Below are positions 1 to 13,086 of a DNA stretch of 13,086 nucleotides, in pieces (within the stretch, counting starts at the first letter, position 1; each line of letters opens with the position of its first letter). Origin of the DNA: a virus. Its lineage: Duplodnaviria > Heunggongvirae > Uroviricota > Caudoviricetes. The stretch is from positions 1 through 13,086 of IMG/VR virus record IMGVR_UViG_2713896897_000017. The stretch is one strand, 5' to 3'. The notes beneath the pieces were generated by a model, which saw only the letters and a program-made list of their open reading frames with translations, did no database searches and was not told the origin of the DNA. Made by a program: the position numbers and the translations under genes.

Positions 1-228
1 CGGCCTGATATTGCTGTACGGTGGGTTATTCCAGATTGCACCGTGGCTTATCCACTCAGAATTGAGCGCGTCGTCGGCCTCTGTTAGCCAGTGAGCACAC
101 AGAGCGTTTTTGTCGCTCGCTGCTGAATCCAGCCAGAATCCAAACTCAATATCCAGTGCATCAAAAAGCCAGAGCGGCGTTTGCCAGCAGTCCTTGTCGT
201 GTGCTGGCGTATTTGATTTGATAGTCAT
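1..228 (-). CDS. Phage N6-adenine DNA methyltransferase (phage Dam family), N-terminal 76 codons only; C-terminus lies beyond the window start
   Basis: Manual reverse-complement translation from ATG at 228: MTIKSNTPAHDKDCWQTPLWLFDALDIEFGFWLDSAASDKNALCAHWLTEADDALNSEWISHGAIWNNPPYSNIRP. Contains the NPPY catalytic motif and the WQTP...LF...EFGF...LD leader typical of phage Dam-type methyltransferases. Its ATG overlaps the ninB stop (ATGA). Open to the window edge. Confidence 0.7.
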   Translation of the reverse strand, partial: MTIKSNTPAHDKDCWQTPLWLFDALDIEFGFWLDSAASDKNALCAHWLTEADDALNSEWISHGAIWNNPPYSNIRP

Positions 229-671
229 GCAGCCTTCCCTTTTCGTTGTGACCATTCATACTCTCGCCGGGAGTCATCACTCCACCGCACGTTGCGCTCT
301 GAGCCGAACCAGAACATGATTTCGATAAGCTCAGTCATGCTGGCCTTTCGCATTTTGCTGGTACGCACACCAAGCATGACAACGCCACCGTCGATACCAG
401 GCGCACTTCTTTGCTCCATTTTTTTGGTCTTAAGCCACAGGGCAGTGAACAGATCTTTCCAGTCTTCCGGCGCAAGTCTCTCTCCATGCCAAAGCACCTG
501 ACGTGATACGTCCTGCAATAACGCCCACATAAGGCGGTTTTGAGGATTACTCCGCTTTGGTTCTTTAATGTGGACTTCGTGAGGTGACTTGTCGTCGATG
601 GGAAGTGAGAGTATTGCGTCCATGGCATTGTTTCTGATTGCTTCGTTGCGAAGCATGTATATTTGCTTCAT
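225..671 (-). CDS. ninB: NinB (Orf-family recombination mediator)
   Basis: 148-aa ORF; recalled similarity to lambda NinB (conserved ...DQNR..W....DVSRQV.WHG... and C-terminal WSD....EW.....AA), in the expected nin-region position downstream of the replication genes. Confidence 0.8.
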   Translation of the reverse strand: MKQIYMLRNEAIRNNAMDAILSLPIDDKSPHEVHIKEPKRSNPQNRLMWALLQDVSRQVLWHGERLAPEDWKDLFTALWLKTKKMEQRSAPGIDGGVVMLGVRTSKMRKASMTELIEIMFWFGSERNVRWSDDSRREYEWSQRKGKAA

Positions 672-693
672 CGTTACCTCGACTTAATTCTGC

Positions 694-1020
694 TCATTGA
701 TACCCTCTCTCACTTAATCGCGCCCACGCTTCGTTAAACTCTTCTCGGGTTGCGCCGGATTTTCTTTCTTCAAACATCAGGCATTCGCTGATGTCTCCCC
801 ATGACTTTGGTCGCTTGTCAGCGAACAGGTCATCCCATTCGAATACCCAGCGGCCTGATTTTCGGTAGTGGTAAATGGTCAGCCATGTTGTGCTGTTCGC
901 CGGATACCCATAGAGAACTTCGACTTTTTGATCACGGTCTTTATGCTTTTTCAGCAGGATAAAGCCAGCAACCAGCGAAGCTCCGGCAAGAATGACGATT
1001 GGTATTTGCCAGTCAGCCAC
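694..1020 (-). CDS. Hypothetical small membrane protein (single N-terminal transmembrane helix) in the ren position
   Basis: 108-aa ORF; N-terminus IPIVILAGASLVAGFILL is a predicted TM helix followed by a KKHKDR positive patch; GGAGAG Shine-Dalgarno just upstream. Sits between the helicase and ninB. Confidence 0.5.
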   Translation of the reverse strand: MADWQIPIVILAGASLVAGFILLKKHKDRDQKVEVLYGYPANSTTWLTIYHYRKSGRWVFEWDDLFADKRPKSWGDISECLMFEERKSGATREEFNEAWARLSERGYQ

Positions 1021-1036
1021 GATTTACTCTCCCCCA

Positions 1037-1067
1037 AATAAAAAGGCCTGCGATTACCAGCAGGCCT
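1037..1067 (-). terminator. Rho-independent terminator (tR2-like) between the helicase gene and the nin-region genes
   Basis: Perfect 8-bp inverted repeat AGGCCTGC (1044-1051) / GCAGGCCT (1060-1067) with an 8-nt loop; on the minus strand the hairpin is followed by TTTTATTT (complement of 1037-1044). Confidence 0.6.
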
Positions 1068-1092
1068 GTTATTAACTCAGTGATGTAGATGG

Positions 1093-2469
1093 TCATACGT
1101 CAGCCCCTTGTGCATATCGTCTGCCACGCGCAGCAGGTGCATTTGATGTTGTGCAAATCTGTCTGGCTTCATCCTGGTCACATGCAACAAAGTGTCCGTT
1201 GCAGAACCGCTGGTAAACCGTACCAAGCGAGCCAAAACGGTTTTTCGTCACGATGATTTCAGCAAATGGCGCGGCGCTACTGTTCTCGTCATATACCGCT
1301 TCCCGATAGAGCATGATGATTGAGTCTGCGTCCTGCTCAATGCTTCCTGAATCACGCAAATCTGCGTTTGTCGGGCGTTTGTTTGGTCGCTTCTCAACAT
1401 CGCGCGAAAGCTGACTCAGGGAGATAACAGGCGTTTTCAGGTCTTTCGCCATCGCCTTAAGGCTTCCTGAGATGTGAGCAATTGCGAGGTCGTTGCGGTC
1501 TGCTTTCGGCTTCTCAATAAGGCCAAGATAATCCGCCATGATGAGTGACAGGTTTGGATTTTCCTGTTTGTGCCGCTCTGCGATTGAGCGAATTTCTTCT
1601 ACCGATAACCGCGAGGCATCGACTACCCATACATCCAAATCTGCAAGCTGACTCATGCCGTTAGCAACACGCGCCCAGCCTTCGTCATCCATCGATGCAG
1701 GATTTCGCAGTACGCTAACCGACATCCTCCCGGCGTTGGCAATACTTCGCTCTGCAATCTGCAATGCGCTCATTTCCATTGAGAAAATCAATACTCCGCG
1801 CCGGACGTCAGAACCAGGAATAACACGACTTGCAACGCCTTCGGCAATCTTCAGCGCCAGTTCGGTTTTTCCCATACCAGGACGAGCGGCGATAATCACC
1901 AAGTCTTCTGCGTTCATCCCTCCGGTGATGGCGTCAAGTTCTTCGATTCCGGTCTTCAGGGTATCTGACTCTTCTCCGTTCCTCAGACGCCTGTCAAGCG
2001 TGTCAGTGTAGTCAGTAATGATTTCCCCTAACCGTACAGGTTTAACCTCGTCACGGGGCTTTCTGATGGCTGAAAGACGCTTTACAAGCTCGTCCATCGC
2101 CTGACTCGATGCGTCGATGGTTCCGCTCTGAATTGGTTCACGCATTTCATCCATGATTTCCAGCACCAGGCGGCGGTGATAGTTATCCGCGACCATTCCG
2201 GCATATCCCTTCAGGTTTGCGGCACTCGGGCAGTTTTTGCTGGTCATCAGGATTGAGGTGAAATGCTCCTCTCCGCACGCCTCGGCAACCATCAGAGCGT
2301 CGATTAGGTTCCTGTTTCTCGCCTGCTTACGGATAACTTCGAAGGCTTTCCGGTAGAGCGGAATTGAAAACGCTTCCGGCTCCAGCGTTGCAAGAACGTC
2401 ACTGGCGGTTGGAGTTAATCCACCAATCAGCAGGCCACCGATAACGCTCGCTTCGATATCCTGTCTCAT
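1093..2469 (-). CDS. Replicative DNA helicase, DnaB family (P22 gene-12-like)
   Basis: 458-aa ORF with Walker [18 protein letters not shown] and overall DnaB-like C-terminal RecA-fold region; start overlaps the stop of the O-like gene (coupled). Confidence 0.85.
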
Positions 2470-3287
2470 GCAATCCCCCTGTCTGCAAACTTCCCTTCCC
2501 GAACTCCCGTTAACGAGTCTTCTCTCAGCAGGTAATCAAAATCAGCCGTCCAGCCCGTGTCGTTGTCTCCGAAGTAAAACGGCTTGGCCTGATGCACAAA
2601 CGCCCTGACATACGCTCTGAAACCGTCCACGTTTGGCGTTTTCAGTTGCGGGATGATTTTCTTCAGGCGGCGTTTGCGTTTCTCGTTGACCGCAACAGCG
2701 TGTGGCAGTCTGTCACCGACTTCGGTGTTGTAGGCGTTCAGGAAGGATTCGTAGTCGATTCGTTCTGCCTTTCGACGTGCAGGTTTAACCCGCCCATCGC
2801 CTCCCCCATTGGGGGGTAGGGGGGTATTTGTATTTATTGTCTTTTGTATATTGTCTTTTGTGTTTAGCTGACTTGGCTTATACCCATTAGCCGACTCGGC
2901 TAATGTTTTATTAGCTGTTTTAGCTAATGTTAAGCTGTCCTGGCTAATCCACTGCGAAACCACCTTGTTCACTCCGATTTTCACGCCATCAGCAATGAGG
3001 AATTTACGCTCAATAAGCTGGCGCTTGGCTGCGCAAACATGAGTGTGATGAATACCTGTCATGGCTGCTATCTGCGTGTTTGTGAGTCGATCCATCGGCT
3101 TATTGAATCCGTATGTCTTGCGCATGATAGCGAGCATCACCTTCAACTGCCGGACAGTTAAATCAGCCATCAGCAGACTGTCGGTAATCTCGTTAGCAAC
3201 GCGCATGAAACCATCTTCGGTATCTGCCACGCGATGCTCCACGACCTCCAGTTGAGGCCTGTAATCAGCTAACTTAACGACGCCCAT
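2466..3287 (-). CDS. Replication initiator, lambda O-like (P22 gene-18-like)
   Basis: 273-aa ORF; the N-terminal domain aligns by eye with lambda O ([34 protein letters not shown] versus lambda ADLTKRQFKVLLAILRKTYGWNKPMDRITDSQLS); a low-complexity linker ([10 protein letters not shown]) is encoded over the repeat region. Confidence 0.85.
2836..2950. repeat. Candidate replication origin inside the O-like gene: tandem AT-rich direct repeats plus TTAGC/GCTAAT iteron-like repeats
   Basis: ATTGTCTTTTGT occurs twice (2836-2847 and 2850-2861); TTAGCTG or GCTAAT motifs recur at about 2864, 2887, 2899, 2911, 2921, 2943; preceded by a G tract (2811-2824). In lambda the ori iterons lie inside O. Confidence 0.5.
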
Positions 3288-3435
3288 GTTTCACTCCTGC
3301 TTTGGCTAGTCTGTAAACACCAACAAGGCTCTCTGCGAACGCCTTGTTATTTGCTGCGGCTACCACTAATCCCTCAGGTGAATCAGGGTGTCGAATCTCT
3401 TCTTTTTCCTGGTATTTCTTACGACGTTTTGTCAT
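3274..3435 (-). CDS. Hypothetical 53-aa protein between cII and the O-like gene
   Basis: Manual translation: [58 protein letters not shown] Shine-Dalgarno 6 nt upstream of the ATG; the stop overlaps the first codons of the O-like gene. Below the size cut-off of the supplied ORF track. Confidence 0.4.
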   Translation of the reverse strand: MTKRRKKYQEKEEIRHPDSPEGLVVAAANNKAFAESLVGVYRLAKAGVKHGRR

Positions 3436-3469
3436 AATTACTCCTGTGGATTGATCCAGTCTTTCTACA

Positions 3470-3751
3470 TCAGGCCTCGAAGAATTCGCCGTTCTTCGGG
3501 GCTTTTTCTTTTGTCAGGTAATCGGCAAGCCGCTTAGTCAGTTCAGCCATTTCATCGTCTTCGATTCCGTATTCCAGAACAGCCAGCATCATGCTTACCT
3601 GCGAGAAGAAACCATTCTTCCATCGGCTTACCTGGTATTCCGGAACTCCCATCGCGCGAGCGAATGTCTTCTGCCCCATCAGTGCCAGTTTGTTCAGCAA
3701 GGCTGACTCGATGCGAGCCGCTTTCTTGCTTTTAGTTGCAATAGTACCCAT
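3470..3751 (-). CDS. cII: CII-like transcriptional activator
   Basis: 93-aa ORF; recalled similarity to lambda CII (RIESALLNKLA...SRWK...FSQVSMMLAVLEYGIEDDEMAEL versus lambda RIESALLNKIA...SRWK...PKFSMLLAVLEWGVVDDDMARL); AAGGA RBS. Confidence 0.85.
   Translation of the reverse strand: MGTIATKSKKAARIESALLNKLALMGQKTFARAMGVPEYQVSRWKNGFFSQVSMMLAVLEYGIEDDEMAELTKRLADYLTKEKAPKNGEFFEA
3474..3510 (+). terminator. Rho-independent terminator antisense to the cII 3' end (oop-RNA-like)
   Basis: 11-bp stem GCCTCGAAGAA (3474-3484) / TTCTTCGGGGC (3492-3502) with one G-U pair and a 7-nt loop, followed by TTTTTCTTTTG. The T tract exists only on the plus strand. Same position as the lambda oop terminator. Confidence 0.6.
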
Positions 3752-3758
3752 ACATAAT
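3726..3758 (+). promoter_or_regulatory. PRE-like CII-dependent promoter (TTGC-N6-TTGC plus -10)
   Basis: TTGCTTTTAGTTGC at 3726-3739 is the CII-binding repeat, 13 nt before CATAAT (3753-3758); same architecture as lambda PRE, within the first codons of cII and pointing towards cI. Confidence 0.55.
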
Positions 3759-3828
3759 TTCCTTAATGATTAGATAGAGTTGGCTTCGCAAAGAAACGCA
3801 AAACCATAGAGATTTTTTTTCTGGTAAT

Positions 3829-3860
3829 GCCCTTTTTCAGGGCGGGGATGTATAAGAGCG
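3829..3860 (-). promoter_or_regulatory. nutR (boxA and boxB)
   Basis: The minus strand reads CGCTCTTAT (boxA, complement of 3852-3860) then GCCCTGAAAAAGGGC (boxB, complement of 3829-3843), which I recall as identical to lambda nutR boxB; located between cro and cII. Confidence 0.8.
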
Positions 3861-3868
3861 GGAATGTC

Positions 3869-5221
<1,353 letters not shown>

Positions 5222-5247
5222 TCCTCACCTCGATTTCGATAACCAAA

Positions 5248-5290
5248 AAACAAACTATTTTCCGTTTAAAAACAATGGAGTTTGTTTTTC
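5248..5290 (+). terminator. Weak candidate terminator downstream of the cI operon
   Basis: 9-bp stem AAACAAACT (5248-5256) / AGTTTGTTT (5279-5287) followed by TT; the loop is long (22 nt, AT-rich), so this is weak. Confidence 0.25.
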
Positions 5291-5302
5291 ACGCCCCTTT
5301 TT

Positions 5303-5339
5303 ACAATATTTCTTGTTTACAACATACAATCTTTCTTGT
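5303..5339 (+). promoter_or_regulatory. Left operator region (434-type operators) with PL
   Basis: ACAA-N6-TTGT sites at 5303-5316 (ACAATATTTCTTGT) and 5326-5339 (ACAATCTTTCTTGT), upstream of nutL and N; exact -35/-10 assignment uncertain. Confidence 0.65.
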
Positions 5340-5385
5340 AATTTTAAGCCATCAGCAGGACGCACTAACCACCATTGAAGGTGAG

Positions 5386-5415
5386 GCTCTTAAAAATTTA
5401 GCCCTGAAGAAGGGC
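5386..5415 (+). promoter_or_regulatory. nutL (boxA and boxB)
   Basis: GGCTCTTAA (5386-5394) followed by GCCCTGAAGAAGGGC (5401-5415), recalled as identical to lambda nutL boxB; lies in the N leader. Confidence 0.8.
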
Positions 5416-5525
5416 AGCATTCAAAGCAGAAAGCTTTGAGTAGCGCGAAATGCAGCTGCAAGACAGCAACCGTGGAGATAAGCATCACGGCGCGTTACTC
5501 AAAGCTAACTGACAGGAGAATCCAG

Positions 5526-5852
5526 ATGGATGCACAAACACGCCGCCGCGAACGTCGCGCAGAGAAACAGGCTCAATGGAAAGCAGCAAATCCCCTGTTG
5601 GTTGGGGTAAGCGCAAAGCCAGTTAACCGCCCTATTCTCTCGCTGAATCGCAAACCGAAATCACGAGTAGAAAGCGCACTGAATCCGATAGACCTTACAG
5701 TGCTGGCTGAATACCACGAACAGATTGAAAGCAACCTGCAACGTATTGAGCGCAAGAATCAGCGCACATGGTACAGCAAGCCACGCAGTGAAATGGGTGT
5801 GACTTGTATTGGTCGCCAGAAAATGAAATTAGGCAGCAAACCACTTATTTGA
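5526..5852 (+). CDS. N: Antitermination protein N (lambda type)
   Basis: 108 aa from the internal ATG at 5526 (MDAQTRRRERRAEKQAQWKAANPLLVGVSAKPVNRPILSLNRKPKSRVESALNPIDLTVLAEY...), close to lambda N including the arginine-rich boxB-binding motif; AGGAG RBS. Confidence 0.9.
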   Translation: MDAQTRRRERRAEKQAQWKAANPLLVGVSAKPVNRPILSLNRKPKSRVESALNPIDLTVLAEYHEQIESNLQRIERKNQRTWYSKPRSEMGVTCIGRQKMKLGSKPLI

Positions 5853-5860
5853 GGTGATAT

Positions 5861-5947
5861 ATGGAAGAAGAATTTGAAGAGTTCGAAGAGCATCCGCAGG
5901 ATGTGATGGAACAATACCAGGACTATCCGTATGACTACGACTATTGA
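5861..5947 (+). CDS. Hypothetical 28-aa highly acidic micro-protein
   Basis: Manual translation MEEEFEEFEEHPQDVMEQYQDYPYDYDY; GAGGTG RBS 4 nt upstream; its 3' end overlaps the ral start. Below the ORF-track size cut-off. Confidence 0.3.
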   Translation: MEEEFEEFEEHPQDVMEQYQDYPYDYDY

Positions 5948-6131
5948 TAAGAATCAATGGTGTGGACAATTCAAACGATGCAATGGATGCAAGCTGCAAT
6001 CGGAATGCATGGTTAAGCCTGAAGAAATGTTTCCTGTAATAGAAGATGGGAAAAATGTCGATAAATGGGCAATACGAACTACGGCAATGATTGCCAGAGA
6101 ACTTGACAAACAGAAAAACAAGGCTGCCTGA
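5931..6131 (+). CDS. ral: Ral (restriction alleviation protein)
   Basis: 66-aa ORF MTTTIDKNQWCGQFKRCNGCKLQSECMVKPEEMFPV..., nearly identical to lambda Ral as I recall it. Confidence 0.85.
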   Translation: MTTTIDKNQWCGQFKRCNGCKLQSECMVKPEEMFPVIEDGKNVDKWAIRTTAMIARELDKQKNKAA

Positions 6132-6265
6132 TGGTGGCCTTTATTTTTGGCATAAACAACAGAATAAACACTGCACTGTGTATTCATTCCAACGAGTGAA
6201 TACACGGAGCAATGTCGCTCGTAACTAAACAGGAGCCGACTTGTTCTTATTATTGGAAATCATCT

Positions 6266-6296
6266 TTGCCCTCCAATGTGAGGGCGATTTTTTATC
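6266..6296 (+). terminator. Rho-independent terminator between ral and the next gene
   Basis: Stem TTGCCCTC (6266-6273) / GAGGGCGA (6280-6287, one G-U pair) with loop CAATGT, followed by TTTTTTAT. Confidence 0.6.
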
Positions 6297-6313
6297 TATG
6301 AGGATATGAATAG

Positions 6314-6682
6314 ATGTCAAACATCAAAAAATACATCATTGATTACGACTGGAAAGCATCAATAGAAATTGAAATCGACCATGACGTAATGACAGAGGAA
6401 AAACTTCACCAGATTAATAATTTCTGGTCAGACTCTGAATACCGACTCAATAAACACGGCGCTGTATTAAATGCTGTATTAATCATGCTGGCGCAACATG
6501 CTCTGCTTATAGCAATTTCGAAAGACTTAAATGCATATGGTGTTGTTTGTGAGTTCGACTGGGATGATGGAAATGGTCAGGAAGGATGGCCTCCAATGGA
6601 TGGTAGCGAAGGAATAAGAATTACCGATATTGATACATCAGGAATATTTGATTCAGATGATATGACTATCAAAGCCGCCTGA
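6314..6682 (+). CDS. Hypothetical acidic 122-aa protein
   Basis: ORF with strongly acidic composition (D/E-rich C-terminal third, DWDDGNGQEGWPPMDGSEG...DSDDMTIKAA) and a central hydrophobic stretch AVLNAVLIMLAQHALLIAIS; no family recognised. Confidence 0.5.
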   Translation: MSNIKKYIIDYDWKASIEIEIDHDVMTEEKLHQINNFWSDSEYRLNKHGAVLNAVLIMLAQHALLIAISKDLNAYGVVCEFDWDDGNGQEGWPPMDGSEGIRITDIDTSGIFDSDDMTIKAA

Positions 6683-6757
6683 GCGCGGCTTTACCGCATA
6701 CCAATAATGCTTCACGAGAGGCATTTTCGTTATGAAATCAAATATAAGGAGTTACCC

Positions 6758-6892
6758 ATGATGCACTTTCAGCTCGCGGGTAGCGGCGTCATGTCCGCTT
6801 TCTACCCGCACGAATCTGAATTATCACGCCGAGTTAAACAATTAATCAGAGCAGCAAAGAAACAACTGGAGGCGTTATGCGCAATGAAATAG
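6758..6892 (+). CDS. cIII: CIII-like protein (FtsH inhibitor protecting CII)
   Basis: 44 aa from the ATG at 6758 (MMHFQLAGSGVMSAFYPHESELSRRVKQLIRAAKKQLEALCAMK); resembles the lambda CIII core (AG...ESLLERITRKL); AAGGA RBS 7 nt upstream. Confidence 0.6.
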   Translation: MMHFQLAGSGVMSAFYPHESELSRRVKQLIRAAKKQLEALCAMK

Positions 6893-7029
6893 CCATCAAT
6901 CACCAGATGCTTCGTGCTGCACAGAACAAAGCAGTAATAGCCAGATTTATTGGTGATTCAAAAATGTGGCTTGAAGCAAATAAAACGATGAAATCAGCTA
7001 TCAACCTTCCGTGGTATCGCAGGAAATGA
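6877..7029 (+). CDS. kil: Kil-like small protein
   Basis: Manual translation MRNEIAINHQMLRAAQNKAVIARFIGDSKMWLEANKTMKSAINLPWYRRK (50 aa); the ATG overlaps the end of cIII, as kil does in lambda; the FIGD.KM motif is reminiscent of lambda Kil. Confidence 0.45.
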   Translation: MRNEIAINHQMLRAAQNKAVIARFIGDSKMWLEANKTMKSAINLPWYRRK

Positions 7030-7133
7030 GTTTTACAGATAACTGGTCAGACGAAGAATTTATTCGTCAGATGAACAAAATTCTCAATCAGCACAAAGAA
7101 CAGGAGAAAGATGATGATTCTGACTCTGAATGA
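7026..7133 (+). CDS. Hypothetical 35-aa acidic micro-protein
   Basis: Manual translation MSFTDNWSDEEFIRQMNKILNQHKEQEKDDDSDSE; ATG overlaps the kil stop (ATGA); overlaps the next gene by 23 nt. Confidence 0.3.
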   Translation: MSFTDNWSDEEFIRQMNKILNQHKEQEKDDDSDSE

Positions 7134-7422
7134 TAAGCGTGAAATATCGCAAATAATCGCAAGTTTTACTGATGAAGATTACGAACGAATTAACAGTGAA
7201 GTTGATCGCCTCTGCAAACGTTGCGACCCAATAAGCGAAATGCTTCGCTCATATAAACCAGATGAACACACTAAGGATGCTATCGACTGGCTGGAAGATG
7301 ATGACTGTAACTATCAGGAAAAAGCCGCTGAATGGTTCTGGGATGCAATAACCGAAAGAGTTAAGGCTGAATATGCCTTCGCAATATTCAAACGCAGACA
7401 CATTTTTGGAGAAGCTGCATGA
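7111..7422 (+). CDS. Hypothetical 103-aa protein immediately upstream of recT
   Basis: ORF with AGGAG RBS 4 nt upstream; its stop overlaps the recT start (ATGA); no family recognised, and it is not lambda Gam by recalled sequence. Confidence 0.55.
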   Translation: MMILTLNDKREISQIIASFTDEDYERINSEVDRLCKRCDPISEMLRSYKPDEHTKDAIDWLEDDDCNYQEKAAEWFWDAITERVKAEYAFAIFKRRHIFGEAA

Positions 7423-8201
7423 GCAATATCGTTGAATTCGTTAAACAGCAAGAGCAGTTATTCTGCGGAGCATTGACTGAACAGACGGTGATATGGGCTA
7501 AGGAAAGCCAGTTTGCAATTCAGTATTTCCAGAAAAACGATTACCTGGCTAAAACAGCACTGGCAAATCCAACCAGCGCACAGAACGCCATCATCAATGT
7601 TGCGGCGATCGGCATTACCTTAAACCCGGCTAGCAAACTGGCTTATCTGGTTCCGCGCGACGGCATGGTGTGCCTTGATATCAGTTACATGGGATTACTT
7701 CATCTTGCGCAATCGACAGGCTCAATTAAGTGGGGACAATGCAAACTGGTGTACTCAAACGACACCTATGAATCAAACGGCCTTGATTCAGCACCAACCC
7801 ACAAATACAACGCATTTGGTGAGCGAGGCTCTATTGTTGGTGGTTATTGCACGGTTAAAACAGCAGATGGTGACTACCTCACTGAAGAAATGAGTCTGGC
7901 AGAAATTAAAGCTGTGGAAGCAACGAGCAAGGCAAAGAATGGACCGTGGAAGACATTCTGGGAAGAGATGGCGCGTAAAACCATAGTTAAACGCGCCAGC
8001 AAATACTGGCCTAAAGCCCAGCGACTGGATAATGCCATTCACCTGCTTAACGAAGATGAAGGTATGCATCAGGAACCAGTTATGCCGCACAAATCAGAGG
8101 AAGATATCCGCGAAGATGAACGGAAACGCCAGCAGGAAATATGGATAAAGCACAACTTCTTTGTGATGAAATGGCCTAGGCTGAAACCATGGATGATTTG
8201 A
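7419..8201 (+). CDS. recT: RecT-family single-strand annealing recombinase
   Basis: 260-aa ORF with the conserved RecT/Red-beta C-terminal signature GPWKTFWEEMARKTIVKRASKYWP (compare Rac RecT GPWVTHWEEMAKKTAIRRLFKYLP). Confidence 0.8.
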   Translation: MSNIVEFVKQQEQLFCGALTEQTVIWAKESQFAIQYFQKNDYLAKTALANPTSAQNAIINVAAIGITLNPASKLAYLVPRDGMVCLDISYMGLLHLAQSTGSIKWGQCKLVYSNDTYESNGLDSAPTHKYNAFGERGSIVGGYCTVKTADGDYLTEEMSLAEIKAVEATSKAKNGPWKTFWEEMARKTIVKRASKYWPKAQRLDNAIHLLNEDEGMHQEPVMPHKSEEDIREDERKRQQEIWIKHNFFVMKWPRLKPWMI

Positions 8202-8303
8202 AGCGATATTTTGCAGAAGCATATCGCCTGACATCTGGAATGAAATTGCGGCAGAACGTACAAGCCATTTACATAGAATGCAAAGCGAAACTGGAGGTTG
8301 CCA

Positions 8304-8786
8304 GTGAGCAAACTGTATGAAATTGCCAATGAATACGCAAAGCTGATGGATTTAGATTTAGAGCCAGAGATGATTGCTGACACAATAGAAGGCATGGAAG
8401 GAGAATTTACCGATAAAATAGAGCAACTTCTTGCCATTATTAAAAATGAGTCTGGTTATGCTGAACGCCTCAAGGAAGAGGCAAAGTCACTGAATGAAAG
8501 AGCAGCAGTAATTCAAAATAAGATTGATAGCATTATGACGTATATAGCGTCATCGCTTGAAATGGTTGGAAAGAAAAAGATTCGAGCAGGTATTCACCAG
8601 GTAACAATCCGCAAACCGTCAGAAACTGTAGAAATCATCGACTCAAGCGCCCTTCCTCCTGAATACGTTGAGTTCGAAACGACAATTAAAGCCGACAAAC
8701 TGGCAATCAAACACCAACTAAAAGCAGGAATAAATATCCCCGGTGCTCAACTCAAAGTTGGGAAACCTTCACTTCTTATCAAATAA
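8304..8786 (+). CDS. Sipho_Gp157-like protein (commonly found next to phage recombinases)
   Basis: 160 aa from GTG at 8304 with GGAGG 6 nt upstream (track ORF starts at TTG 8298); coiled-coil-rich N-terminus and overall resemblance to the Gp157 family. Confidence 0.55.
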   Translation: MSKLYEIANEYAKLMDLDLEPEMIADTIEGMEGEFTDKIEQLLAIIKNESGYAERLKEEAKSLNERAAVIQNKIDSIMTYIASSLEMVGKKKIRAGIHQVTIRKPSETVEIIDSSALPPEYVEFETTIKADKLAIKHQLKAGINIPGAQLKVGKPSLLIK

Positions 8787-8797
8787 CGGTATCGCCT

Positions 8798-9112
8798 ATG
8801 AAAAAGACTCCTTGGGAGAAATGGGAAGTCGATTTCTTACGCGAAGTAGCGGCGACAATGCCAGTTGAAGTTATCGCTGAAAAACTGGAAAGGACTGAAA
8901 AAGCAGTAATGGCGAAAGCAACAAGGATTGGCGCTGACATTGTTAGCCGACTTCGTGGAAGACGCTGGACAAGAGCCGAAGTATCACTTTTCGGTAAGTT
9001 CTCCGCAGAAGAAATAGCAATTGCAACCTGCCGCTCAATTTATTCAGTAAGAGCTATGCGATACAAGCTAAAAAAACTCGATGAAGAAAGAGCAGGCATA
9101 CGAATAAATTAA
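8798..9112 (+). CDS. Hypothetical 104-aa protein with an internal tandem repeat (possible DNA-binding)
   Basis: ORF; two roughly 40-aa units starting W..(W)EV.F and W.RAEV.LF, each followed by E(E)IA...R......A...K, suggest a duplicated helical module. Confidence 0.5.
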
Positions 9113-9128
9113 CAAAGAGGAATTTACC

Positions 9129-9296
9129 ATGAGAGGACTTGCATACAACCCCGGCATTCTTCCTGCAGAAATGATTATTCGCCAACGCGTAAAGCCAATG
9201 CCATCGAGAGAGGAATTGCTTAAGAGAAAGAGTTTCGGTTCTGTTAATGACAACAAATATCTGAATGCGATGTTGCGCAAAGGAGGCAACCAATGA
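9129..9296 (+). CDS. Hypothetical 55-aa protein
   Basis: Manual translation [55 protein letters not shown]; AAAGAGG RBS about 8 nt upstream; its stop overlaps the next gene start (ATGA). Confidence 0.4.
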
Positions 9297-9646
9297 GCAA
9301 GATTGACTATCAGGCACTGCGTGAAAAGGCAGAGAAAGCAACGTGTGGTGTGTGGTCGCTCGAATATGGAGAGAGCCGATTTGATTGTGATGATGCGCTA
9401 ATTCATCGTGACGTTGTTGGATATCTTCCCATTTGCAGAATTGAAGGAGCGCATCCTGAAAGCGGTTTCGATGAAGATTTCCAAATGGAACAGCAGGCCA
9501 ATGCTGAATTCATCGCCGCAGCCAATCCGGCTACTGTGCTGGCACTACTGGATGAAAACGAAAGACTGTGTCGCGAGCTGATAGCTCGTAATGGTGAGAT
9601 TGAAGGGCTTCGGAAGTGGGCAGAAGAACGGGAGATGCAACCATGA
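9293..9646 (+). CDS. Ead/Ea22-like protein (paralogue 1)
   Basis: 117-aa ORF with the conserved block [24 protein letters not shown] characteristic of the Ead/Ea22 family. Confidence 0.65.
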
Positions 9647-10089
9647 TGACTTTTACCAGCGAACAATTAGCTACCTTACGTAAGATAGCGCAACAGGCAA
9701 CACAGGGCGAATGGCGTGCATTCATCTCGCCGGACACTGGTACATATGCGGTGCATACGCCGGGGGATGAACGTTGCGGAGACATTATCAAATGGCCTGG
9801 CTTTGACGACCAGAAAAATGCAGAGAACAACGCAGAATTTATCGCAGCTTTCAACCCTAAATTAGTGCAGACACTGCTGGATGAACGGGAAAGAAACCAG
9901 CAATACATCAAATCACGCGACCAGGAGAACGAGGATATTGCGCTAACGGTAGGGAAGCTGCGCGTTGAGCTTGAGGAGGCAAAATCAAAACTCAACGAGC
10001 AGCGTGAGTATTACGAAGGTGTTATCTCGGATGGGAGTAAGCGTATTGCTGAACTGGAGAAGTTACGAAACATGCTGTCCAGAATGTAA
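9643..10089 (+). CDS. Ead/Ea22-like protein (paralogue 2)
   Basis: 148 aa from the ATG at 9643 (overlaps the previous stop); shares NNAEFIAAFNPKLVQTLLDERER with the upstream paralogue; C-terminal coiled-coil. Confidence 0.65.
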   Translation: MMTFTSEQLATLRKIAQQATQGEWRAFISPDTGTYAVHTPGDERCGDIIKWPGFDDQKNAENNAEFIAAFNPKLVQTLLDERERNQQYIKSRDQENEDIALTVGKLRVELEEAKSKLNEQREYYEGVISDGSKRIAELEKLRNMLSRM

Positions 10090-10130
10090 CCATGAATTTA
10101 AAACAGATTTCGTGTATTGAGGTATAACAA

Positions 10131-11051
10131 ATGACCACTATTACCAGAGAACAAGCTCTGAAAATTATTGAGGCAGCCGATGAGGTTATTAGTGCGTTTG
10201 CCGGAACTAACGAGGATGTTCACCCTGGTAGCGAAAACATGCTACGCCTGTGGGATGACCTGAATGACCGTTACGCGCCGCCGGAAGTTGTGCGTGAGCT
10301 GGCACGGATTGCACTGGCATCGCTGGAAGCAGAGCCGGTGGTTTACATGTGGGATAGCGAAAGAAAAGATATTGATGCCCCCGGGTATTATCGGACTGAG
10401 CATTTAGTGTTCGCTGAGAGTAGTGTTAAGCAATGGGGAGGGCGAGTTGTTCCACTTTACACCGCACCGCCAGCGACGGTAATACAGGCTGATGTCGCGC
10501 AAGCAATTGAAAATCTCAAGCAGAAGTTAGTGGAATGCAATTGCTATAGCTACTGCGCAGATGCAGTTAAAGGCATAGAGGGGGCTTGCCGTGCTGTTAT
10601 CTATAGCCAAGTCGATAATCCACCAGCATCTGGTAGCCAGGCTGCTGAATCCAATCGCAGTAATGAGTGGACTGGCAATCCTGATATTGATAACGCCATC
10701 ATCATGCTCGACCGCATAGATACGGCGGAAAGTTACGATGATGACCGTATTGAGGCTGTTAAGGTTGTTTTGCGTAGACTGGCTGGCAACTCTCCGGTAA
10801 CTCCGGATGGTTGGATAAGCTGTAGTGAGCGAATGCCAGAAATGGGAGAGCGACAATGCTATGTGTTAGCAGCAGACTTTATAAACAACTACCCACCAAA
10901 CATCCCCAACACTCAGGTCGGCGTATATGGCGACTGGTTTAATGATGGCAATCCCACTTGGGATGACGGTGATGGCGAAGACCTGTATCTCAAAGAGGTA
11001 ACCCACTGGATGCCCCTACCAGAGCCACCGCAGGAGGTTAACCGTGGCTAA
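10131..11051 (+). CDS. DUF551-domain protein
   Basis: 306-aa ORF; the C-terminal region W.SCSERMPE...VL...........VGVY.DW......W.DG......EVTHWMPLPEPP matches the DUF551 pattern common in enterobacterial prophages; the N-terminal two-thirds are unassigned. Confidence 0.6.
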   Translation: MTTITREQALKIIEAADEVISAFAGTNEDVHPGSENMLRLWDDLNDRYAPPEVVRELARIALASLEAEPVVYMWDSERKDIDAPGYYRTEHLVFAESSVKQWGGRVVPLYTAPPATVIQADVAQAIENLKQKLVECNCYSYCADAVKGIEGACRAVIYSQVDNPPASGSQAAESNRSNEWTGNPDIDNAIIMLDRIDTAESYDDDRIEAVKVVLRRLAGNSPVTPDGWISCSERMPEMGERQCYVLAADFINNYPPNIPNTQVGVYGDWFNDGNPTWDDGDGEDLYLKEVTHWMPLPEPPQEVNRG

Positions 11052-11328
11052 CCTGCAACTTGCCGTTAACGGTGAATACTTCGATGCCATGATTCGCGGA
11101 GAGAAAACAGAAGAATATCGCCTGTGTAATGACTACTGGAATAAGCGAATTATGTTCCGCGAGTATGACCGCCTGATTATCACAAAGGGATATCCGAAGC
11201 GCGATGATTCCAGCCGCAGAATAGACGTCCCGTATGACGGATATGAAATCAAGACAATCACACATCCGCACTTCGATGATAAACCGGTAAAGGTATACGC
11301 GATAAAGGTAAATATCGGCACTGAATAA
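11044..11328 (+). CDS. ASCH-like (PUA-fold) small protein
   Basis: 94-aa ORF from GTG; the N-terminus YFDAMIRGEKTEEYRL fits the ASCH GxKxxExR signature (compare E. coli YqfB FQDDILAGRKTITIR). Confidence 0.45.
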   Translation: MANLQLAVNGEYFDAMIRGEKTEEYRLCNDYWNKRIMFREYDRLIITKGYPKRDDSSRRIDVPYDGYEIKTITHPHFDDKPVKVYAIKVNIGTE

Positions 11329-11353
11329 CAATCCGCACAACACAAGGTCAAGA

Positions 11354-11632
11354 ATGTTCAGAGTGATTTACCCTAACACCTGGTACGTCGACCACCACGG
11401 CACTCCCTGCAAAATCCTGCGTTCCACTCACAACAAAGTTCACTACATCCGAAAAGGCAGAACATGTATCGCCAGCATGTTCCGCTTTAATCATGACTTT
11501 GAACCTGTGAATAAAGCTGACGCAGATCGGATAGCTGAAGAGATCGAAACAGCAGAACACATTAAGAAGTTACGTTCCATGCGCTCAAAAAACAGAGGTA
11601 ACCATGGAATCACACAGCCTCACACTCGATGA
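11354..11632 (+). CDS. Hypothetical 92-aa protein
   Basis: ORF with a basic C-terminus; no family recognised. Confidence 0.4.
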   Translation: MFRVIYPNTWYVDHHGTPCKILRSTHNKVHYIRKGRTCIASMFRFNHDFEPVNKADADRIAEEIETAEHIKKLRSMRSKNRGNHGITQPHTR

Positions 11633-11701
11633 GGACTGTTCATTTCTCAATGGTATCCAAACCTACTGCAATAATACCAATTCAATCAATGGAGATTCCA
11701 A

Positions 11702-12049
11702 GTGGAAGAAGAAATCTTCACTCGTGAAGAGGCAGCATCGTATCTGAAGGTAGACAAAGGCACTATCACGCAGTGGATACGAAGTGGACGACTTCAGGCC
11801 GCAAAGATAAATCCAGATAAACCTAAAAGCCCATATCGCATTTGCAAGTCAGACTGCATTGCGGCGCTTAAGTCTGTGAGACACAATAGCGCGGTGAATG
11901 CGGTTGATGTGCAGGAGGTTAAAGCATGTCAATCAAACTACGCGGTGGCACATGGCACTGCGATTTCGTCGCGCCAGATGTTTCAAGAGTTAGACGCTCT
12001 CTTGAAACATCGGACAAAATGCAAGCGCAAGAACTTCACGATCGTCTGA
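11702..12049 (+). CDS. xis: Excisionase (P22 Xis-like, HTH_17/AlpA-type)
   Basis: 115-aa ORF from GTG with a GGAG RBS; FTREEAASYLKVDKGTITQWIRSGRL is a typical excisionase HTH; overlaps the int start; length close to P22 Xis. Confidence 0.65.
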   Translation: MEEEIFTREEAASYLKVDKGTITQWIRSGRLQAAKINPDKPKSPYRICKSDCIAALKSVRHNSAVNAVDVQEVKACQSNYAVAHGTAISSRQMFQELDALLKHRTKCKRKNFTIV

Positions 12050-13086
12050 AAGCAGAGGCGTGGAGAGTAAAAAATCTCGGGGAATCTCCGAAAAAGCTAT
12101 TCAAGGAAGCCTGCATACGGTGGCTGCGTGAGAAATCGGATAAGAAGTCCATTGATGATGACAAGAGCATTATATCGTTCTGGATGTTGCACTTCAGAGA
12201 AACCATTCTCTCTGACATAACAACAGAAAAAATAATGGAGGCGGTAGACGGGATGGAAAACCGCCGCCATCGCCTGAACTGGGAGATGAGCCGGGACAGG
12301 TGTTTGCGGCTTGGCAAGCCAGTGCCGGAGTATAAACCAAAGCTGGCAAGCAAAGGAACGAAGACGCGGCATCTGGCAATACTTCGCGCTATTCTCAATA
12401 TGGCTGTTGAATGGGGATGGCTTGACAGGGCGCCAAAAATATCAACACCACGCGTTAAGAATGGACGAATCAGATGGCTTACAGAGGAGGAATCGAAGCG
12501 CCTGTTTGCAGAAATTGCTCCTCATTTCTTCCCTGTGGTCATGTTTGCAATCACGACAGGCCTTCGCCGTTCCAACGTTACAGACCTTGAGTGGTCACAG
12601 ATCGATCTGGATAAGAAAATGGCATGGATGCACCCTGATGAAACAAAAGCTGGCAATGCGATCGGAGTTCCTCTTAACGAAACCGCATGCCAGATATTAA
12701 GAAAACAGCAGGGGCTCCATAAGAGATGGGTATTTGTCCACACCAAACCTGCCTACCGAAGCAACGGAACAAAAACAGCAGCGGTAAGGAAGATGAGAAC
12801 CGACAGCAACAAGGCATGGAAGGGAGCGTTAAAGCGGGCAGGCATTAGCAACTTCCGCTTCCATGACCTGAGGCATACCTGGGCAAGCTGGCTGGTTCAG
12901 TCCGGTGTCTCTCTTCTTGCACTTAAAGAGATGGGAGGATGGGAAACTCTCGAAATGGTTCAAAGATATGCCCATCTTTCAGCCGGGCATCTCACCGAGC
13001 ACGCGAGCAAAATCGATGCGATTATAAGTCGCAATGGCACAAATACGGCACAAGAGGAGAACGTGGTTTACTTAAATGCGAGGTAA
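11926..13086 (+). CDS. int: Tyrosine integrase, P22 Int type
   Basis: 386-aa ORF; the N-terminus ...SLETSDKMQAQELHDRLKAEAWRV and the C-terminal catalytic region FRFHDLRHTWASWLVQSGVSLLALKEMGGWETLEMVQRYAHL align by eye with P22 Int as I recall it; the stop codon is the last triplet of the window. Confidence 0.9.
   Translation: MSIKLRGGTWHCDFVAPDVSRVRRSLETSDKMQAQELHDRLKAEAWRVKNLGESPKKLFKEACIRWLREKSDKKSIDDDKSIISFWMLHFRETILSDITTEKIMEAVDGMENRRHRLNWEMSRDRCLRLGKPVPEYKPKLASKGTKTRHLAILRAILNMAVEWGWLDRAPKISTPRVKNGRIRWLTEEESKRLFAEIAPHFFPVVMFAITTGLRRSNVTDLEWSQIDLDKKMAWMHPDETKAGNAIGVPLNETACQILRKQQGLHKRWVFVHTKPAYRSNGTKTAAVRKMRTDSNKAWKGALKRAGISNFRFHDLRHTWASWLVQSGVSLLALKEMGGWETLEMVQRYAHLSAGHLTEHASKIDAIISRNGTNTAQEENVVYLNAR

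Follow-up and report, generated by a model that had tools for sequence, protein, structure and literature searches.

The DNA analyzed here is a stretch of 13,086 nucleotides (hereafter the window), corresponding to positions 1 to 13,086 of the IMG/VR virus record IMGVR_UViG_2713896897_000017, a member of the Caudoviricetes. The present work concerns the region from 6132 to 6682, in which a small open reading frame (ORF) follows an intrinsic terminator, and for which a prediction made from the sequence alone (the original prediction) had proposed an anti-defence function. When the region was compared with phage lambda and with protein family databases, we found that it is very probably the interval between ral and ea10, together with the ea10 gene itself, of a lambda-like early-left (pL) operon ordered as in lambda. 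The original prediction had not recognized that the ORF is a named gene, ea10, or that the terminator forms the 3′ end of a characterized small RNA (sRNA), PreS. Sequence identity combined with published lambda experiments establishes both the presence of PreS and its terminator tL2a in the spacer and the identity of the ORF product as Ea10. Both ea10 and tL2a/PreS are already described in the literature, and ea10 is represented in Pfam; the locus is a re-discovery and is ordinary for a lambda-like phage. The main features of the region are as follows.

6314–6682, + strand: ea10 (DUF2528), encoding an acidic early protein of 122 amino acids (aa), predicted to be globular; ATG start (Pfam PF10800, phrog_646, tblastn, AlphaFold2 model)
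6300–6304, + strand: Shine–Dalgarno sequence GAGGA of ea10, 9 nt 5′ of the ATG and 7 nt 3′ of the tL2a U-run (read from the sequence)
6266–6293, + strand: intrinsic terminator tL2a, comprising the 3′ hairpin of PreS and its Hfq-binding U-tail (terminator scan and lambda alignment; name tL2a from bioRxiv 10.1101/2024.10.31.621285)
6207–6293, + strand: PreS (LPR1), Hfq-dependent sRNA of 87 nt, homologous to lambda 34011–33925 with 84 of 87 nt identical
6242–6267, + strand: seed region of PreS, with blocks 6242–6251 and 6257–6267, each having one central mismatch to the dnaN leader
6172–6211, + strand: hairpin directly 5′ of PreS (inverted-repeat search and RNA fold; invariant in lambda, mEpX2 and E. 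coli S1-CAM-02-A)

The ORF at 6314–6682 matched Pfam family DUF2528 (PF10800) over the whole profile (positions 1–104 of 104) with a score of 156.2 bits against a cut-off of 22 (E = 4e-46), and also matched PHROG 646 (phrog_646, E = 8e-70), a family whose function is not annotated. In tblastn searches the product was 97.5% identical to that of lambda ea10 (J02459, 33539–33904) over 122 of 122 aa and 100% identical to Ea10 of phage mEpX2, and Ea10 matches were present in 215 of 50,697 phage records. Given the matches to DUF2528 and PHROG 646 and the 97.5% identity, the ORF is, by homology, the ea10 gene of lambda. The spacer between ral and ea10 measures 182 bp both in the window (6132–6313) and in lambda (33905–34086), and the two spacers align without gaps at 97% identity. 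Protein length, Shine–Dalgarno sequence, start codon and the place between ral and cIII are likewise shared with lambda, and the differences consist of three amino acid substitutions, the lack of sieB upstream and the presence of RecT instead of Bet/Exo downstream.

In the lambda GenBank record J02459 the gene is labelled “ea10 (ssb;122)” (lambdap45, 33536–33904). Ea10 has been described as an abundant pL product that was formerly taken for Kil (PMC3961180), the insertion of IS10 or oxa7 in ea10 leaves the phage viable (PMC2327257), and the gene appeared as a non-essential “DUF2528 family protein” in a CRISPR interference study of lambda (PMC10695390). Its role is “not fully understood” according to a recent preprint (bioRxiv 10.1101/2024.10.31.621285). 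Our literature search found no paper testing an Ea10 function and no published phenotype. A block of host replication near ea10 was reportedly described by Sergueev et al. in 2002; this lead was dropped, the citing titles being concerned with the exo-xis region.

The spacer upstream of ea10 carries the sRNA. LPR1, renamed PreS, is an Hfq-dependent sRNA of lambda that is encoded between ea10 and ral and ends at tL2a, its G+C-rich hairpin and poly-U tail being this terminator of the pL operon; species of about 88 nt and 68 nt are detected in the lytic cycle only (bioRxiv 10.1101/2024.10.31.621285). According to the same preprint, PreS pairs with host mRNAs and has dozens of targets, activating the translation of dnaN and repressing alaS, and its deletion reduces the titres of spontaneous induction two- to four-fold. 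We placed the 5′ end of PreS at window position 6207 from the cloning primer P810, in which lpr1 starts at GAGCAATGTCGCTCGTAACT (Table S5 of the preprint). The sequence of the 5′ end, the 5′ stem-loop, the terminator hairpin and the U6 tail are the same as in lambda, and the three substitutions are G42T (6248) and T56A (6262), which lie in the two dnaN-pairing blocks, and G70A (6276), which lies in the terminator loop. The terminator that had been called between ral and the ORF is therefore real and is the tL2a of lambda: a consensus scan gave a stem at 6266–6287 with 8 pairs, 5 of them G-C, and a 6-nt loop, followed by T6 at 6288–6293. Rfam 15 was found to have no matching family for PreS: the top-scoring model, MicX, reached 19.9 bits, and its gathering score is 75.

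Directly upstream of PreS, the perfect 9-bp inverted repeat (6178–6186 and 6197–6205) to which the original prediction had drawn attention was confirmed, and it extends to arms of 22 nt with 82% complementarity. The corresponding RNA hairpin has 14 bp in its stem and 4 nt in its loop, and folding of 6170–6297 gave −46.6 kcal/mol (z = −5.3 versus shuffles). This hairpin is invariant in four aligned sequences, including lambda, mEpX2 and the prophage of E. coli S1-CAM-02-A. The PreS 5′ end at 6207 coincides with the final pair-forming nucleotide of this stem, at its 3′ base, which fits the earlier idea of a processing site and makes it plausible. Judging by its position, the hairpin at 6172–6211 probably helps to define or protect the 5′ end of PreS when the sRNA is cut from the pL transcript. 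Neither the terminator nor the inverted repeat is significant as a pattern alone: the region holds 4 terminator-like sites versus 1.9 ± 1.6 in shuffles, and by our own estimate chance alone would yield roughly one bare 9-bp inverted repeat in every 13 kb. We regard both as real because of the near-identity to lambda (97%) and the published experimental data. No sigma-70-like promoter suitably placed upstream of ea10 was detected, the sole nearby match (6226–6253, 9/12) lying inside PreS, and the scan found no promoter-like site preceding the hairpin at 6172–6211.

Antitermination by N is established lambda biology. In the window phage, RNA polymerase modified by N would start from pL and read through tL2a, and ea10 would then be translated from the GAGGA located 7 nt past the U-run. 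The proposal that ea10 is decoupled from the upstream genes unless N antiterminates agrees with this arrangement, in which expression from pL needs read-through of tL2a. Transcripts stopped at tL2a, or trimmed to it, would be cut at the base of the hairpin at 6172–6211 to yield PreS, and PreS bound to Hfq would pair with host mRNAs as in lambda, with dnaN going up and alaS going down.

The two substitutions in the seed region bear on this last step. Positions 36–45 and 51–61 of lambda PreS can pair without any mismatch with two blocks of the E. coli dnaN leader, which lie between −46 and −16 counted from the start codon, and G42T and T56A each place one central mismatch in one of the blocks, with the remaining pairing kept. 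G42T falls within the CTG triplet that was mutated in the published inactive variant LPR1-M1 (primers in Table S5 of bioRxiv 10.1101/2024.10.31.621285), and the predicted free energy of the dnaN seed duplex is −31.9 kcal/mol for lambda, −21.3 kcal/mol for the window and −20.5 kcal/mol for the loss-of-function M1. All 119 IMG/VR matches listed carry the lambda bases at PreS 42 and 56, and the exact allele of the window had no IMG/VR match. It was also not found in 50,697 phage records (best full-length identity 97.9%) or in 5,426 complete E. coli genomes (best 98.6%), and the nearest sequences differ from it at exactly 6248 and 6262. On the host side, a 70-nt query of the dnaN leader matched 5,425 of the 5,426 E. 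coli genomes, with at least 99% identity in 3,685 and 95–99% in 1,740, so that roughly one third of those matched have at least one difference from K-12 within the query. Two of the variant genomes were sampled, and in both the one position that differs falls in the spacer that separates the pairing blocks; the blocks themselves are unchanged, as in K-12. A common polymorphism of the E. coli dnaA/dnaN leader (TCA to TCT) was considered as a compensating change and was rejected, as it fails to restore pairing with the substitutions in the window.

It may be that PreS is functionally degraded or retargeted in this phage, in which case the hairpin and terminator would be mere transcription punctuation ahead of ea10. 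The position of the two substitutions at the centres of both pairing blocks (one of them inside the M1 triplet), the weaker predicted duplex, the failure to find the allele in any of the three collections, the closest relatives differing at precisely these two sites and the unchanged pairing blocks of the host leader all speak for such a change. On the other side, the terminator and the 5′ stem are intact, the duplex energies are predictions only, and pairings with others of the dozens of PreS targets may be preserved. In addition, the background divergence between the window and mEpX2 is 1.4% (13/947), because of which about one substitution per 87 nt is expected by chance. That the two changes both fall in pairing blocks is mildly unusual and not compelling, and we consider a degraded or retargeted PreS possible and rather unlikely. 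The double seed variant represents a small, natural case of possible sRNA target drift in a phage.

Next to PreS, the occupancy of the ea10 site was found to vary. A pattern scan of IMG/VR gave at least 119 contigs bearing PreS, and 109 of those listed had enough downstream sequence for inspection. The ea10 gene was present in 33 of these 109 loci, starting 20–24 nt past the PreS end; in about 50, the U-run of tL2a leads straight into the following hairpin (window 6706–6725), and cIII comes next; and the remaining loci have other small, mostly acidic ORFs in the ea10 slot, among them acidic ones of 103, 82, 138 and 106 aa. A 55-aa first ORF downstream of PreS proved spurious on re-inspection, being the leader between tL2b and cIII. 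Here tL2b denotes the hairpin at 6706–6735, which is probably the tL2b of Luk and Szybalski. INPHARED phage records with the PreS region number 325, compared with 215 that have Ea10. Furthermore, mEpX2 and the prophage of E. coli S1-CAM-02-A are homologous to the window from 6136 onwards, just past the stop codon of ral, and the genes upstream differ. From these comparisons, ea10 appears to be a present-or-absent cassette at a fixed site, flanked by tL2a and a second terminator-like hairpin. Given the shared start of homology and the presence or absence of ea10, the upstream hairpin, PreS, ea10 and cIII would travel as a module of which ea10 is an optional part. With respect to moron-like cassettes, the presence/absence polymorphism was found here and a promoter of its own was not. 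Bracketing by terminators was also seen around a 66%-identical homologue in Serratia.

The properties of the Ea10 protein were then considered. The strong acidity and the acidic C-terminus that had been read from the translation were borne out, with a pI of 4.3, 23 D+E versus 9 K+R and a net charge of −14, of which the C-terminal 40 residues contribute −8, and the hydrophobic segment was located at residues 50–68 (Kyte–Doolittle 2.19). An AlphaFold2 model built with 61 homologues had a mean predicted local distance difference test (pLDDT) score of 95.6 and a predicted template modelling (pTM) score of 0.87. The model consists of a beta-hairpin (4–11 and 15–22), helices at 28–37, 41–48, 51–70 and 74–79, a long loop, a strand at 101–107 and an acidic tail, giving the element order beta-beta-alpha4-beta in a compact alpha/beta globule. 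In this model the hydrophobic stretch is the helix 51–70 (pLDDT about 97), and in homologues K, R and E occur inside it. Since the helix is part of the globule and accepts K, R and E, the stretch is interpreted as a core helix and not as a membrane anchor.

When PDB sequences were searched with an Ea10 profile, no match was obtained; Foldseek of the model against PDB gave no match at E ≤ 0.001, and Foldseek against BFVD gave one unnamed relative only. The predicted fold thus appears to resemble no solved structure, including solved anti-defence proteins and single-stranded DNA-binding proteins (SSBs) of the oligonucleotide/oligosaccharide-binding (OB) fold, and these profile and structure searches found no match for the likeness to anti-restriction or anti-defence folds that had been suspected. 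Among 113 representatives clustered at 50% identity, residues F37, E90, G91, D96, G97 and G100 are near-invariant, and the motif EGWPxMDGSxGI looks like a binding loop by its conservation.

When 1.84 billion representatives were searched exhaustively with HMMER, 587 DUF2528 clusters were obtained, nearly all of them stand-alone proteins of 110–140 aa; the longer members (179–217 aa) showed no second Pfam domain. In the diverged lambdoid prophages that were examined (Klebsiella, Serratia and Rosenbergiella), ea10 always lies in the early-left operon, between repressor/N and kil, gam and recombination genes. Distant members with 34–53% identity were, in all cases examined, encoded in Mu-like transposable phages or prophages of Salmonella, Serratia, Oceanobacter, Burkholderia and Stenotrophomonas. 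Here the DUF2528 gene comes after the gene of a MuB-like ATPase, directly in some cases, and precedes the genes of Mu Gam (where present), GemA and Mor, within the “semi-essential” early region, and in the Stenotrophomonas phage it adjoins an RdgC-like gene. The Mu-like proteins, such as those of Burkholderia phage vB_E430 and of the Salmonella and Serratia prophages, share with Ea10 the domain, at an identity of 34–45%, the size and the status of an accessory gene in an early operon, and in the Salmonella and Serratia prophages the gene is also near a Gam; unlike in the window, no ral, PreS or terminator lies upstream of it. The DUF2528 family, from homology and gene order, therefore bridges lambdoid and transposable phages. 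Given the synteny in both groups, two unrelated kinds of temperate phage place DUF2528 among early genes directed at host nucleases and the cell cycle.

As a tentative explanation, we suggest that Ea10 is a soluble acidic protein of a single domain that would bind and neutralize a host protein acting on phage DNA, as a decoy or inhibitor, through the conserved EGWPxMDGSxGI loop. Possible targets include a nuclease, a component of a restriction or defence system, and a DNA-binding factor, and Ea10 would act alongside Ral, Gam and Kil. Somewhat less probable is the narrower reading, a subset of this one, in which Ea10 is an anti-defence protein that is produced early and next to Ral, and that either mimics DNA or inhibits restriction or abortive infection in some other way. 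The protein is small, strongly acidic, early and non-essential, its gene occupies a variable accessory slot adjoining ral, members of the family are also seen close to Gam in early accessory regions of Mu-like phages, and the near-invariant E90 and D96 are acidic. T7 Ocr and ArdA resemble Ea10 in being small, strongly acidic, early, non-essential and encoded beside another anti-restriction gene; they differ in that neither sequence nor fold is similar, Ea10 being predicted as a compact globule and having no known anti-restriction activity. The globular model, which is not an elongated DNA-like rod, the lack of a published phenotype in our search and the weakness of acidity alone as evidence count against a DNA mimic or other anti-defence protein, and on balance the analysis neither supports nor excludes such a role, which we hold to be possible and somewhat doubtful. 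Extended to the family, DUF2528/Ea10 may with similarly limited probability be a counter-defence protein or host-nuclease inhibitor with a fold unlike solved structures, common to lambdoid and Mu-like phages and acting through its acidic loop.

Two further explanations are less probable than the decoy or anti-defence readings. The old “ssb” label in J02459 implies that Ea10 binds single-stranded DNA, aiding Red/RecT recombination or replication, and the location of the gene upstream of recombination genes in lambdoid phages, as well as beside the RdgC-like gene of the Stenotrophomonas phage, would suit such a function. No Pfam SSB or OB-fold family was matched, however, and no SSB occurred among the structural matches; three strands and four helices are predicted instead of an OB barrel, the net charge is −14, and in the alignment of 61 sequences R44 is the only basic residue at a nearly invariant position. 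Our literature search did not turn up the original data behind the label. Because of the fold and the charge, single-stranded DNA binding is less likely than the decoy or anti-defence function, and we consider it improbable. It had also been stated that the ORF sits where lambda carries sieB, from which one might propose a membrane-associated exclusion protein that replaces SieB and is anchored by the hydrophobic segment. This placement was mistaken: the lambda order is N (35037–35438), sieB (34482–35036), orf28, ral (34087–34287), ea10 (33536–33904) and cIII, so that sieB lies between N and ral and ea10 itself occupies this spot. The hydrophobic stretch at residues 50–68 and the absence of sieB between N and ral in the window (N ends at 5852 and the orf28 homologue starts at 5861) are what the proposal has in its favour. 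Lambda, however, has both genes, so that neither stands in for the other; the stretch is a confidently modelled helix packed in the globule, with K, R and E within it in homologues, and no SieB family was matched in Pfam or PHROGs. SieB has in common with Ea10 only that it is a non-essential gene of the N–cIII interval, being a different gene without homology, and an exclusion role of this kind is essentially excluded.

Several points weigh against the reading developed here, from the processing of PreS to the action of Ea10 as a decoy. Ea10 has neither fold nor sequence similarity to any protein of known function, and the idea of a host-protein decoy draws only on charge, the conserved loop and gene neighbourhood. 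The bracketing by terminators is not family-wide, as the Klebsiella homologue is without it and some Mu-like homologues abut the preceding gene. The processing role of the upstream hairpin follows from its position alone, the preprint being silent on how the PreS 5′ end is formed, and with two seed mismatches to dnaN the mechanism of lambda PreS may not transfer unchanged to the window phage.

Ea10 is one of the few abundant early proteins of lambda that are still without a known function. What this analysis adds is a confident model without a solved relative, a conserved acidic loop, the sharing of the family between lambdoid and Mu-like phages, and the cassette arrangement behind PreS. These make Ea10 a reasonable, unproven candidate for an anti-defence or host-takeover role, and if the counter-defence reading were true, it would give a function to a lambda gene that has been an orphan for 50 years.

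The surroundings of the region belong to a pL-type early-left operon on the + strand, in which the neighbours N, Ral, cIII, Kil and RecT were all confirmed by Pfam. With ral directly upstream and cIII downstream, both identified in this way, the position of ea10 in the pL operon is as in the lambda gene table, and the location of the gene between ral and cIII given by the original prediction holds. The neighbouring features are listed below.

5526–5852, + strand: N (Pfam)
5861–5947, + strand: orf28 homologue of 28 codons, very acidic (MEEEFEEFEEHPQDVMEQYQDYPYDYDY), overlapping the start of ral as lambda orf28 does
5931–6131, + strand: ral, antirestriction protein Ral (Pfam PF11058, E = 1.4e-45, full length), homologous to lambda ral 34087–34287
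6120–6149, + strand: terminator-like hairpin with T-rich tail TATTTTTGGC, lying across the ral stop codon (scan; 9 pairs, 5 G-C), kept in lambda except for 2 substitutions
6706–6735, + strand: terminator-like hairpin downstream of ea10 with tail TTCGTTATGA (scan; 8 pairs), aligning to lambda at about 33493–33512
6758–6892, + strand: cIII, FtsH-inhibitory lysogeny factor (Pfam PF08134, E = 2e-30)
6877–7029, + strand: Kil (Pfam)
7419–8201, + strand: RecT recombinase (Pfam)

We know of no named terminator or function for the hairpin at 6120–6149. Further downstream, the interval between kil and recT (7026–7422) contains two small ORFs that had no Pfam match, one of 103 aa and the other of 35 aa, the latter being acidic with a DDDSDSE end; in lambda, gam is found in this interval.

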